Part shown: one piece after another, positions 59,821 through 64,000 of the stretch
Numbering within the stretch: position 1 is the stretch's first letter
Layout: each line of letters begins with the position of its first letter
From: Giardia intestinalis
Lineage: Eukaryota
Reading direction: 5' to 3' (one strand)
Assembly: GCA_000002435.2 (NCBI GenBank)
Contig: CM018793.1
DNA: 64,000 nt
Notes under the pieces: generated by a model
The model's database searches: none
What the model was told of the DNA's origin: nothing
Seen by the model: only the letters and a program-made list of their open reading frames with translations
Translations under genes and position numbers: made by a program

Positions 59821-62800
59821 ATGCTATTGGTTTTTCTGCCATGGTTATTTTTAGCTCTTGTTTCTGATGTTTATAGAAAGCACCCGGAGGACTATCCTGT
59901 TCATGATATCACAGACTCTGGTGACAGCATGACGCCTAGAAACACATCAGTATGCGCAGTCCAGCTTCAAAGGATATCTGACGGAAGTCTGGCTTTTCAG
60001 TACTTTGATGACGGAGCCGTGCACTTCTTCGCTAACTCATACCTTTTTGATGGTTTGGAGTCCACTATCGGCAAAGTCGTCTGGGAGACCTCTCCAGCAG
60101 GGGAATTGTACCTTCTCGAATTTTCACCTCTGCCTTCACATCCTTTCAACTCGTACTTACGTGAATATACAGACTCGCAGGAGACGCCCTTGCAAGGCAC
60201 GGCCGATCCATTAACGGACGTCTATTACGCAATAAAGGCAAGAATCCTTTTCCTTAAGATGAGGCTTACTAACGCCAACACAACATTACGATCGGACGGC
60301 TCATTGCTTTTGTCCAGCAGTCCAAGGAAGGACTCCCGGGTCCCGGAAAAGTATCCCTACTCACTCCCCTACACCCTGAAAAAGCACATCTATAATTGTG
60401 TATCCATGGAGTATAAATCGAGTACTAAAGCCAAACTAGGCAGGCCATGCATGCCTCCTGAAGGCATGCGCCCCATCCTTAAAGAGCAGCACGATCTATT
60501 TAACATGTTATCTGCAGGGAAGATGTATGTTGACTATACAGGAAGCTATATCTACCCCGTCTGTGGCGTCACTACTGACGAAGCTTACACACAAGGAAAC
60601 ACGGCGCCAACAGCATACTTTATCAAGCTCTTGGATGGCGACTCGAACAATCGCACATATCCCCATCGTGCTGGATTCATCCCTAGGGTTACCAGTCGTG
60701 TCTGGGTGGTCGATTACTATTCTGACTGGGTAGGTCTTGCAACAGTGCATGGCGTGGGGTTACTTAATCTAAATGCAAACAGTTACCGGTCCGGCCCTTG
60801 GGCAGAAAACTGCTACTACTCACTCCGCATGGTTGGAAATCCGTTTATGCACGAGGTCGGCCACAATGAAGGCGGACTTCATGGAAATGGTGTCTCTGAT
60901 AGCGCTAATTTCCACAGGTTTATCTCACACTACAGACAGGAGCCCATTTCCGGTGCAGGAACGTTTTCCTACATGGCTTCTGGGGGGTTCCCGTTTTTGA
61001 CTGCTGTACAGAGCGCAAGTCATTACTATAACGCGTGGGAAACCGTGCTCCCCCGCTGGCGGAGGGTTCTGAAGCACTGGGATAATGGGGTTATTCCAGA
61101 GGCGAATACGCCTGAGAAAGGACGAAGAGGGCCACATGGCGGGGGCAAGGCAGATATTGGGATGCACAAGCTCCGAATTATGGATGCGGAGCACCAATAC
61201 ACGTATAAGTTCTTGGGCGCAGATGACGATGCATACACCCCTGCCACATACACAGAGTATGCGGCTGACCCTAAAACAGGAAAAACCTCCAAAGTGGTCA
61301 AGATAGCGTGGATTGGCTTCCAGGATGGATATGATCCAGATGACATTGTGCAGGGCTTGCTGCGCAGGAATCACGTTCTTATGATAGAGGTTTATCTGGA
61401 CAAAGAGGGATTCTTTTCCGAGATGATCACAGACTTTGTATCCGTGTTGATTGAGTATAGATCCAACACTAGGATGTCCTGGAATGGACACTCCATTCAT
61501 TTCCAGGCTCTTCGGCCTCATAATTTTGAGTCCAACATAGTGGTAAACATTCTACACGCGTGCGTAGAACAGAATCACGGCGGTCAAGAGCTTACTTCCC
61601 AAGCCACCGCAAGCCCCATCCCTGGGCGTCTCTGGACATGCCCTGAGTGTGACAAAGGGACTTTTCAACTGTTAGTCATAGACGGAAACTACGCACGTGT
61701 AGATCCAATGAACACAACCATGTTCGACGAAGCTCGGCAGGAGCGTATTCGCAACATCCCCTACCGCAATCTAGTAATCAACTATCGTCCCGGTACTCTC
61801 CCAGCGCCAGCCCCTGATCCACGATTCTACCCTCTTCGATTCATGGAATCTCCAGCGGTGCACTGCTCCATCAAAGATGGAAACATCCCAACAGAACCTG
61901 AAAGGGTTTTTAATGTTACGTGCGAGGCCCTACTGCGTCTCGAAAACTATGCTGTTCACGCCATCTCTAACTACTTCGTTAATGACCCTCATAACGGGCC
62001 TATCAGACAGTATGCCGACAGGTTTGCATACCTCTCAACATACCGCACACTGTCTTCCGGCGCCATCAACTATCTAGGGAACGTCAACAAAGATCCAAAG
62101 AATGCAGCTAAAATGCAAATGCAAATGACGCGCTTTGGGGGAACCACATCTGCAAATAGCTGTTACCTTCACGGTGGTATATTAACAGATGGATCGTCCT
62201 TGGGAGCCAAACAGTCAGACTTTCCTACGATGGTCAGGTTCTATGATAGCATAATAAGTTATGTGCCACCAGGGTCCCAAGAGCAGATTCTCGTTTCTCC
62301 TGGCCCAGGAAACTTCACTGGCCGAATTGGTTGGTCTATGAGCATGGAAAATCGCAAAAAGTTTGCTCAGAGCAGTAATAACGGATACGCAATCATGTTT
62401 GACGCTGTCTGGAATCCCAGCCTTTACTATCTTACTGACGACTATGACACTGCTTTCCTAGGCAACGAGAACCATAAGGAAGCGTACTACTTGGCGCACA
62501 CGTTTCAATACACCAACGGACAATGTGGGTACAATGCATACTTTCATAGCTTTACTGGGAACACTCATGCTGGCGCGAAGATGGGACACGGAACCTCTGT
62601 CCAAGTCTTCATGACATCTGGAGATCGTGTCCTCATGTCAAACCTAAGCTATTCTGATCAGACGTTCCGGCTTCTCCCTGACGGCTTCTCTCTCGAGGGA
62701 ACAGGCTGCTGGGCTCATCAGCACCGACCGACTATTTATCGCGCCAATCAGTGGCATATGATATACAACCCTGCGCCCTCGAAGCGCAACTGGCTCCTTG

Positions 62801-64000
62801 TGCTAGACTTCGACAGCGAAATTCCTGACAACCTGATACTTTTCACCGACTCATATAACTCAACGGATGCTATCGACCTCCGCATGCTTTATCTTGTTAA
62901 CAAAATATCCAATACCGGTGGAGCCAATGATCGTACTATCTATTGGTCCTATGCCTTAGATAACTATGCTATGCTCCACGAGTACTACTATCGGTATGAG
63001 GAATTGGGAGAAAACCCCGGTCTCCGCTTTGCCTTCAACAAAGACGTCCGTCTCGTGAATATTCGATTTATGACGCCCCAGTTCGGGACATTTAACCCAT
63101 GGAATGGCCGTGGAACGATGGAAGGGAAAGGGAAAACCGTCCAACTGTCCAGTAGGCCTGCTGATAATAGGCCTGATGGAGTCCTTGACAAGCCTCATAT
63201 GAACCCATATACCATAAGCATTAGCGGAACAAGATATGAGTTCTCCACAAAAAACGACACCTATACAGTGCCTTTTCCGCTTACGGTACATGAAGGACGT
63301 TTTTCGGTACCAACGAAGATAGAATACTTCCATCCTGACCGGCCTACGTGCAAGGACGGTGAGTATGCATGGCGTCTCCAAACGGGGGCGTTTACATGCA
63401 TGATCTGCCCAACGGGATACTTCTGTAGTGAAGGAGTTATGAATCCATGCCCTCCTGGATATTACACAGACTTGGAGGGCCAATCGTCATGCCTATCCTA
63501 TTCTGCTGCTACAAGTAACCGGGAGTTCAATAAGATCACTGCATCGGAATACTATGCGGGGATTGATTACTCCCGCTTTCCTATCCGTAATCCCGATGGC
63601 ACTGTCCGGGGGTTTTATAATTGCCCCGGTAACAAGTTTACACTGAATGGAGAGTGCAAGACTTGTCCTTCTGCAGGGTATATTTGTGTGCCTGGAATGG
63701 ATCCTGTATTATGTCCGAGGGGTTTCCGCTGTAGAGGAGGGTATGCACAACCATGTGTGGGGGATGAGTATCAGGATGAGGAAGGACGAGATGTCTGTAA
63801 GAAGTACCCTCAATCTGGTACTCGATTAGCTTGTATAAAGGGTGAGGTAGACATCCCTCTAGATGGTGATGACAGAAGGCTCCGTATGAGCGTTGCCTAT
63901 AGCGCACTTCTCGTTTATCTCATGGATCGTCCAAATGCAGGCTGCCGACCCTGTCCTTTAGGATATTCATGCATTGATGGAGCTGTGATTCCATGCACCT
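59821..64000 (+). CDS. Large secreted protein with a metzincin-type zinc-binding motif (putative zinc metalloprotease) and a C-terminal cysteine-rich repeat region; 5'-complete, 3' end beyond the window
   Basis: Not in the ORF track because there is no in-window stop. Reading each 60-nt line from its first base gives no stop codon from ATG 59821 to 64000 (at least 1393 codons). In-frame stops lie at 59782 and 59809 just upstream. Signal peptide MLLVFLPWLFLALVSDVY. HEVGHNEGGLH at 60850-60882 fits HExxHxxGxxH. From about 63350 there are C-x-C-P-x-GY-x-C repeats. Confidence 0.75.
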   Translation, partial: MLLVFLPWLFLALVSDVYRKHPEDYPVHDITDSGDSMTPRNTSVCAVQLQRISDGSLAFQYFDDGAVHFFANSYLFDGLESTIGKVVWETSPAGELYLLEFSPLPSHPFNSYLREYTDSQETPLQGTADPLTDVYYAIKARILFLKMRLTNANTTLRSDGSLLLSSSPRKDSRVPEKYPYSLPYTLKKHIYNCVSMEYKSSTKAKLGRPCMPPEGMRPILKEQHDLFNMLSAGKMYVDYTGSYIYPVCGVTTDEAYTQGNTAPTAYFIKLLDGDSNNRTYPHRAGFIPRVTSRVWVVDYYSDWVGLATVHGVGLLNLNANSYRSGPWAENCYYSLRMVGNPFMHEVGHNEGGLHGNGVSDSANFHRFISHYRQEPISGAGTFSYMASGGFPFLTAVQSASHYYNAWETVLPRWRRVLKHWDNGVIPEANTPEKGRRGPHGGGKADIGMHKLRIMDAEHQYTYKFLGADDDAYTPATYTEYAADPKTGKTSKVVKIAWIGFQDGYDPDDIVQGLLRRNHVLMIEVYLDKEGFFSEMITDFVSVLIEYRSNTRMSWNGHSIHFQALRPHNFESNIVVNILHACVEQNHGGQELTSQATASPIPGRLWTCPECDKGTFQLLVIDGNYARVDPMNTTMFDEARQERIRNIPYRNLVINYRPGTLPAPAPDPRFYPLRFMESPAVHCSIKDGNIPTEPERVFNVTCEALLRLENYAVHAISNYFVNDPHNGPIRQYADRFAYLSTYRTLSSGAINYLGNVNKDPKNAAKMQMQMTRFGGTTSANSCYLHGGILTDGSSLGAKQSDFPTMVRFYDSIISYVPPGSQEQILVSPGPGNFTGRIGWSMSMENRKKFAQSSNNGYAIMFDAVWNPSLYYLTDDYDTAFLGNENHKEAYYLAHTFQYTNGQCGYNAYFHSFTGNTHAGAKMGHGTSVQVFMTSGDRVLMSNLSYSDQTFRLLPDGFSLEGTGCWAHQHRPTIYRANQWHMIYNPAPSKRNWLLVLDFDSEIPDNLILFTDSYNSTDAIDLRMLYLVNKISNTGGANDRTIYWSYALDNYAMLHEYYYRYEELGENPGLRFAFNKDVRLVNIRFMTPQFGTFNPWNGRGTMEGKGKTVQLSSRPADNRPDGVLDKPHMNPYTISISGTRYEFSTKNDTYTVPFPLTVHEGRFSVPTKIEYFHPDRPTCKDGEYAWRLQTGAFTCMICPTGYFCSEGVMNPCPPGYYTDLEGQSSCLSYSAATSNREFNKITASEYYAGIDYSRFPIRNPDGTVRGFYNCPGNKFTLNGECKTCPSAGYICVPGMDPVLCPRGFRCRGGYAQPCVGDEYQDEEGRDVCKKYPQSGTRLACIKGEVDIPLDGDDRRLRMSVAYSALLVYLMDRPNAGCRPCPLGYSCIDGAVIPCT

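Follow-up and report, generated by a model that had tools for sequence, protein, structure and literature searches.

A conserved metzincin signature resembling that of StcE in two giant, predicted surface proteins from a Giardia-only family

StcE (TagA), encoded by plasmid pO157 of Escherichia coli O157:H7, is a secreted metzincin mucinase classified as MEROPS family M66 and Pfam family PF10462. Giardia lives in and under the mucus layer of the small intestine. In the Giardia literature consulted, cysteine cathepsins are held responsible for proteolysis outside the cell and for damage to mucin; metalloproteases go unmentioned in a 2026 review of the Giardia proteome, and the phenanthroline-sensitive protease activity of 100–135 kDa found in Giardia lysates by Faria et al. 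2020 (PMC7148380) has no gene assigned to it. The M60-like or enhancin-type proteins (SslE/YghJ, BT4244, IMPa, ZmpB) are gluzincin O-glycopeptidases, also of extracellular mucosal biology, in which the third zinc ligand is a Glu; the 2012 survey that defined this group (PMC3267712) lists Cryptosporidium, Trichomonas and Entamoeba, and no Giardia. Here we describe GL50803_16373 (hereafter 16373), a gene at the end of a 64,000-nucleotide stretch of contig CM018793.1 of Giardia intestinalis (assembly GCA_000002435.2; hereafter the window), which together with its paralog GL50803_60647 (60647) carries a conserved StcE-like metzincin signature. The gene itself was already in the databases; the novelty lies in recognising this signature in two members of a family of giant, predicted surface proteins seen only in Giardia.

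The zinc motif of 16373, HEVGHNEGGLH (residues 344–354), fits the extended HExxHxxGxxH form of the metzincins and stands where the original prediction, which had been made from the DNA alone, had placed it. Given the composition and length of 16373 itself, chance would yield 1.4e-4 such motifs per protein; all six frames of the window (~128,000 codons) together contain exactly one. H344 and E345 with the V and G next to them, H348 with the N that follows it, G351 with its adjoining G, H354 and G355 are all invariant in the sequences of both motif-bearing paralog groups (8/8). A second string, GTFSYMASGG (residues 380–389), in which M385 lies 31 residues past H354, is likewise invariant in both groups. 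Between the paralogs, identity is 78% in the segment with the motif and 82% in that with the Met string, compared to 57% overall, which places both segments among the best conserved of the N-terminal half.

Judged from alignment, the likeness of this site to the M66 active site exceeds the bare zinc consensus. For the comparison StcE was taken from pO157, 81 M66 proteins were collected for alignment and 56 M66 sequences went into a home-made hidden Markov model (HMM). The M66 active-site signature, GNEfSHEvGHNYGLGHy followed by DAMAGGxP, is matched in Giardia by GNPFMHEVGHNEGGLHG followed by SYMASGGFP. Over a longer span, the M66 consensus reads VHGGSGGGGIVTLDSSLGNEFSHEVGHNYGLGHYVDGFKGSVHR...FGxDAMAGGxPF and Giardia VHGVGLLNL...RMVGNPFMHEVGHNEGGLHGNGVSDSANFHR...GTFSYMASGGFPF, while the strings GNPFMHEVGHNEGGLH...NFHR...FSYMASGGFPF of Giardia and GNEFSHEVGHNYGLGH...SVHR...FDAMAGGSPF of M66 run in parallel. 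Common to both are the active-site helix string GNxFxHEVGHNxGxxH, the downstream invariant xMAxGGxPF and a conserved His-Arg pair some 10–11 residues past the third His; the invariance of Met518 of StcE in the M66 family alignment suggests that this residue is its Met-turn. The StcE/M66 type that had been proposed from the motif is supported at the level of the site, where the GNxF before the motif, the N after the second His and the xMAxGGxPF downstream all agree, but membership of M66 at the HMM level is not.

Alignment of the motif-bearing block of residues 181–460 (here D2) with the M66 alignment by hhalign gave a probability of 85.6% (score 47.6), and the core alone 90.2% (scores of 46–48 for the two alignments), although the Giardia profile has an effective number of sequences (Neff) of 1.3 and pairwise hhalign probabilities are not calibrated like those of a database search. 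When the H, E, H, G and H of the motif were kept and the other columns shuffled, the mean score was 20.6 ± 5.4, and 0/100 shuffles reached the real M66 score. The part of D2 after the motif still aligns SYMASGGFP with DAMAGGSP when taken alone, and 2/200 shuffles reach its score (p ~0.01).

The two proteins are alike in their broader design, each being a large extracellular multi-domain protein with its catalytic part (in Giardia, the candidate one) near the N-terminus, from an organism of the intestinal mucus. They also differ in several respects. The third His and the Met stand 31 residues apart in Giardia and 62 in StcE, a Cys-containing insert of M66 being absent from Giardia, and the residue past the third His is Gly in Giardia and Tyr in M66, including StcE. 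The beta-sandwich and TagA accessory domains of StcE (PF20944, PF12561) have no match in the Giardia protein, which, unlike StcE with its secretion through a type II system, possesses a transmembrane helix. A likeness of the N-terminal block of 16373 (D1) to the StcE beta-sandwich, given 59% by full-length hhalign, was set aside, as D1 alone scored 19.5 and 11/150 shuffles reached that score.

The open reading frame (ORF) behind these comparisons is a real, constrained and already catalogued, though uncharacterised, Giardia gene. On the + strand, translated from 59761, TAA stops lie in frame at 59782 and 59809; the ATG at 59821 then opens a stop-free run of 1393 codons that extends to base 64000, the last base of the window, as originally described. 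All of these residues (1393/1393, 100%) are identical, from residue 1, to the product of GL50803_16373 (GL50803_0016373) of G. intestinalis WB, i.e. XP_037902151.1 or UniProt D3KHX3, a 1542-residue ‘hypothetical protein’; because the identity begins at residue 1, the 5′ end is complete, as had been claimed. The window thus holds the first 1393 of 1542 codons (the 5′ 90%), with the stop codon beyond it. In the 98%-identical strain DHA2 the ortholog is 4629 nt long (1542 codons plus stop), and its upstream neighbour is the same 736-residue ORF as in the window. The frame was indeed not in the mechanical ORF list, but only because an ORF that leaves the source is not entered there; its absence is an edge artefact and not a missed gene. 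Between WB and DHA2 the Nei–Gojobori ratio of non-synonymous to synonymous substitution rates (dN/dS) is 0.137 for the whole gene (49 synonymous and 24 non-synonymous differences) and 0.093 for D2, the second-lowest among five segments tested; 16373 is therefore a coding gene under purifying selection.

By prediction, 16373 is a very large type I membrane protein of 174 kDa (166–174 kDa across the motif-bearing proteins), which would lie at the cell surface. In full-length order, a hydrophobic N-terminus, D1, a variable linker and D2 are followed by a long cysteine-poor region, which a second variable linker joins to a cysteine-rich stalk, and then by a transmembrane helix and a tail. The hydrophobic start, MLLVFLPWLFLALVSDVY, was read directly from the sequence in agreement with the original prediction, and every family member opens with such a segment. 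That the protein is secreted, however, stands only as far as this N-terminus goes: a single transmembrane helix at residues 1497–1520 is followed by a 22-residue, predicted cytoplasmic tail ending in YQPTYRND, and the full protein is therefore expected to be membrane-anchored, not freely secreted. The Cys content is 2.3% overall and mostly confined to the stalk of residues 1177–1421, with CPxGYxC repeats, in which Ephrin_rec_like scores 21.5 bits (E 2e-4), slightly below its 23.1-bit cut-off. The most conserved stretch of the ectodomain core is residues 941–1080. This layout, viz. a signal peptide, membrane-proximal extracellular Cys-rich repeats, a single transmembrane helix and a short tail, is also that of the Giardia variant-specific surface proteins (VSPs) and high-cysteine membrane proteins, from which 16373 differs in an ectodomain that is mostly cysteine-poor and unique to its own family, and in lacking a CRGKA tail; the VSP model PF03302 finds no match in 16373.

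The family to which 16373 belongs appears only in Giardia. An exhaustive HMMER search with an ectodomain profile against 1.84 billion representative proteins returned 8 matches, all from Giardia and covering query positions ~448–1105, and found no relatives outside Giardia; when the D2 profile was used in a word-indexed search at E<=10, nothing but Giardia fragments came back. Full-length members are 60647, GL50803_16916 (1661 residues), GLP15_793 (1426 residues) and G. muris GMRT_14346 (1301 residues). The ~57–60% identity of 60647 to 16373 comes from its full-length sequence, which was recovered in separate searches for relatives, the exhaustive search having given only fragments of it. The overall architecture is common to all members. 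Only 16373 and 60647 carry HEVGHNxGGxH with GTFSYMASGG, and neither string varies among assemblages A, B and E. The 60647 orthologs of these three assemblages are unusually conserved and fall in one 90%-identity cluster. The relatives returned included no 16373 ortholog from assemblage B, no dedicated search of assemblage B assemblies having been made, and the single G. muris relative returned, GMRT_14346, is motif-less; copies with the motif may thus be confined to G. duodenalis, and those of 16373 to its assemblages A and E.

Taken together, we regard a surface-anchored, metzincin-like zinc endopeptidase as the most probable nature of 16373, and hold this with modest confidence, the fold, zinc binding, catalysis and position at the cell surface all being inferred from sequence. 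In such an enzyme one Zn2+ would be bound by H344, H348 and H354, and E345 would activate water as general base; G351 would let the chain turn where the active-site helix ends, and beneath the metal M385 of SYMASGG would provide the Met-turn. The protein would be a glycoprotein in which a signal peptide is followed by a small N-terminal domain, a ~280-residue zinc-site domain, a ~650-residue Giardia-specific ectodomain, the Cys-rich stalk, the transmembrane helix and the tail, so that the endopeptidase domain would be held ~1100 residues out from the trophozoite membrane, with shedding possible; the motif-less, distant paralogs would be non-catalytic relatives. As paralogous, predicted surface proteins that share a conserved zinc site like that of StcE, 16373 and 60647 are concrete, testable candidates for a Giardia metalloprotease. 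If active, they would represent a new protease class in the interaction between Giardia and its host and a lineage-specific surface target without a homolog outside the genus; if inactive, they would still belong to a large, unexplored group of Giardia-only surface proteins.

Several results weigh against a peptidase. The original prediction had looked to HMM searches of peptidase families, and these gave no support: no Pfam or NCBIfam model matches 16373 significantly and no peptidase-family model reaches its threshold; PF10462 (Peptidase_M66) finds no match at E<=10, where the positive control StcE scores 6.9e-84, and in the reverse hmmsearch with the M66 HMM the ORF ranks first of 400 sequences at an insignificant level (E 0.92, 2.5 bits). 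Before the motif, D2 has no similarity to M66 (score 10.7, compared to a shuffle mean of 13.3). The PDB returned nothing at E<=10 to the whole protein, the ectodomain profile, a 240-residue fragment or the D2 profile, and AlphaFold2 gave unusable models both for residues 1–1176 with a 5-sequence family alignment (mean predicted local distance difference test score, pLDDT, 30.3) and for D2 (mean pLDDT 27.2). GL50803_16916, GLP15_793 and GMRT_14346 are without an HExxH at the aligned position, and the core that defines the family is a non-protease region, 3/5 paralog lineages being without the motif. An HVLVH in GL50803_16916, considered as a decayed HExxH, lies in other alignment columns and was not used. 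In addition, 16373 is not in the abridged lists of genes differentially expressed in Caco-2 co-culture by RNA sequencing; the ids of 16373, 60647 and 16916 were not found in the supplementary files searched from two Giardia secretome studies, the kind of data to which the original prediction had turned.

The only Pfam families with any signal in the candidate peptidase region are metzincins, namely Reprolysin_3 (PF13582) in 5/5 sequences and Reprolysin_5 (PF13688) in 2/5, both M12B-like. Residues 305–354 (GLATVHG...HEVGHNEGGLH) align with profile positions 79–122 of 123, but only this last third of the Reprolysin_3 model is matched, at 11.3–15.5 bits (E 0.0045–0.5), below the 22.4-bit gathering cut-off.

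The alternative that survives best is a non-catalytic surface protein, such as an adhesin, coat protein or receptor, whose conserved function would reside in the ectodomain core and whose HExxHxxGxxH would either serve as a structural metal site or be left over from a lost protease activity. It draws on several of the points just listed, above all that all distant homology falls in residues ~450–1105 and not in D2, that the three motif-less members share the architecture, that no HMM ties the protein to any peptidase and that its id is missing from the files of the two secretome studies. We consider it possible, though distinctly the less probable account, given that the catalytic Glu, the three His, the Gly and the Met string are invariant in all sequences of both motif-bearing groups, and that the dN/dS of D2 is low. 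In a relic undergoing decay, E345 should be the first residue to go. Mixtures of active and inactive paralogs are, moreover, common in protease families, e.g. 11/25 M60-like proteins of Trichomonas vaginalis keep HEXXH (PMC3267712).

A different zincin class is the next to be considered, in which D2 would be an M60-like gluzincin of the enhancin/SslE type with a downstream Glu, and not H354, as third zinc ligand. The HEVGHN hexapeptide is identical to that of the M60-like domains of SslE and AcfD, and the loose pattern HEXXHX(8,28)E of the 2012 survey (PMC3267712) formally accommodates E374, which lies 25 residues past the second His (X25), and a Glu at X26 in 60647. These two Glu are, however, shifted by one column between the paralogs and so not conserved, whereas G351 and H354 of the GxxH are invariant, and no segment of the ATEVxNN type is present; the survey itself, as noted above, lists no Giardia. 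In pairwise hhalign, D2 against an M60-like profile scored 32.5, above the 16.9 ± 3.0 of motif-kept shuffles, but with a probability of 21.7–34.7% and 12 confident columns, compared to 86–90% for M66, the profile being of the SslE/AcfD subgroup only (broadening it by plasmid tblastn returned the same type). PF13402 and PF17291 find no match in 16373 or its paralogs even at E<=10, although the control SslE is detected at 3.3e-37, and a reverse hmmsearch of the window ORFs with a home-made M60 HMM was insignificant. The UniRef name ‘Peptidase M60 domain-containing protein’ is attached to 3/5 orthologs of 60647, the other 2/5 being ‘uncharacterized’ like every ortholog of 16373, a pattern suggestive of an automatic rule applied at its borderline. 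An M60-like identity is accordingly improbable. Least probable of all is a chance motif in a non-enzymatic domain, with no role in metal binding. In its favour, ~9e-8 per residue would by estimate give a few tenths of a match over the few million residues of a proteome, and neither AlphaFold2 nor the HMM searches support a zincin fold. Against it, the motif varies neither between the paralogs nor among assemblages, the Met-turn-like string is an independent match, the flanking identities to M66 are beyond the motif-kept shuffles and the sub-threshold metzincin signal recurs in every sequence searched.

Returning to the metzincin-like endopeptidase, host mucus or other extracellular glycoproteins are our leading guess for its substrate. 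The active-site strings are closest to M66, whose member StcE is a protease of mucin-type O-glycoproteins, and it is this likeness that leads to the guess, which is pure analogy; glycoprotease specificity is in any case not assignable from sequence. The ids of 16373 and 60647 were not found in the main text of the Giardia literature searched. In the published RNA sequencing of Giardia in co-culture with Caco-2 cells, 60647 is highly expressed and modestly up-regulated (log counts per million, logCPM, 12.1; log fold change, logFC, 0.69), and 16916 is up-regulated also (logCPM 11.45, logFC 0.56). As candidates for the orphan phenanthroline-sensitive activity 16373 and 60647 may be considered, as a lead only, because their predicted mass does not agree with the 100–135 kDa bands, a further point against the proposal. 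In its widest form, 16373 and 60647 would be the founders of a new surface metzincin family restricted to G. duodenalis, distantly derived from or convergent with StcE-type O-glycoproteases, which cleaves host mucins or glycoproteins and is behind the orphan activity; this whole chain we hold as doubtful speculation.

Table 1. Features of 16373 within the window, in order along the protein.
Feature	Position	Strand	Evidence
5′ boundary: two TAA stops, short AT-rich leader aataatactttgct, then ATG	59782..59820	+	start agrees with the annotated protein
Start of coding sequence, GL50803_16373 (first 1393/1542 codons)	59821..64000	+	stop-free frame; 1393/1393 identity; dN/dS compared to DHA2 0.137
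Putative signal peptide, ~residues 1–18, MLLVFLPWLFLALVSDVY	59821..59874	+	read from the sequence; hydrophobic start common to the family
D1, N-terminal block, ~residues 21–120, conserved between the two paralogs	59881..60180	+	60–72% paralog identity, then a 15–22% linker
D2, candidate metzincin-like catalytic domain, residues 181–460	60361..61200	+	conserved block; sub-threshold Reprolysin_3; hhalign against M66; dN/dS 0.093
Extended zinc-binding motif HEVGHNEGGLH; proposed ligands H344/H348/H354, catalytic base E345, turn glycine G351	60850..60882	+	translation; invariance
Candidate Met-turn GTFSYMASGG, residues 380–389	60958..60987	+	invariant in both groups; aligns with M66 DAMAGGxP, 2/200 shuffles reach the score
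Family-defining ectodomain core, ~residues 461–1105, without known domain	61201..63135	+	common to GL50803_16916, GLP15_793 and G. muris GMRT_14346; HMMER matches ~448–1105
Start of cysteine-rich stalk, CPxGYxC-type repeats, continuing past the window to the transmembrane helix and tail	63349..64000	+	Ephrin_rec_like 21.5 bits

Elsewhere in the window, a head-to-tail array of ~8 VSP copies occupies 13544–28658 (+), with ORFs of 547–715 residues at a spacing of 1.8–1.97 kb which are 62–100% identical; the one copy scanned (17556–19379) ends in the VSP C-terminal segment. The region of this array has a strong positive GC skew, and Tandem Repeats Finder detected no short-period array in it, the repeat unit there being gene-sized. 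A block at 28000–34000 has 60–67% GC, compared to ~47% elsewhere, with overlapping antisense ORFs and another VSP-family ORF at 29277–31778 (PF03302, E 1.7e-47). Other recognisable genes encode an ankyrin-repeat protein with 17 Ank_2 stretches (4562–8242, −), an actin-family protein (53145–54548, +; E 5e-65) and a TPR/ANAPC3-like protein (55082–56671, −). Three large ORFs of 1163, 1534 and 736 residues (35340–43463 and 56893–59103, +) have no Pfam match; the last is the upstream neighbour of 16373 that is conserved in DHA2. In DHA2 the next gene downstream of the 16373 ortholog encodes a 603-residue EGF/tenascin-like protein (8096–9907, +, of the DHA2 sequence), and a VSP-like gene comes after it; tenascin-like proteins feature prominently among those secreted in published Giardia secretomes.

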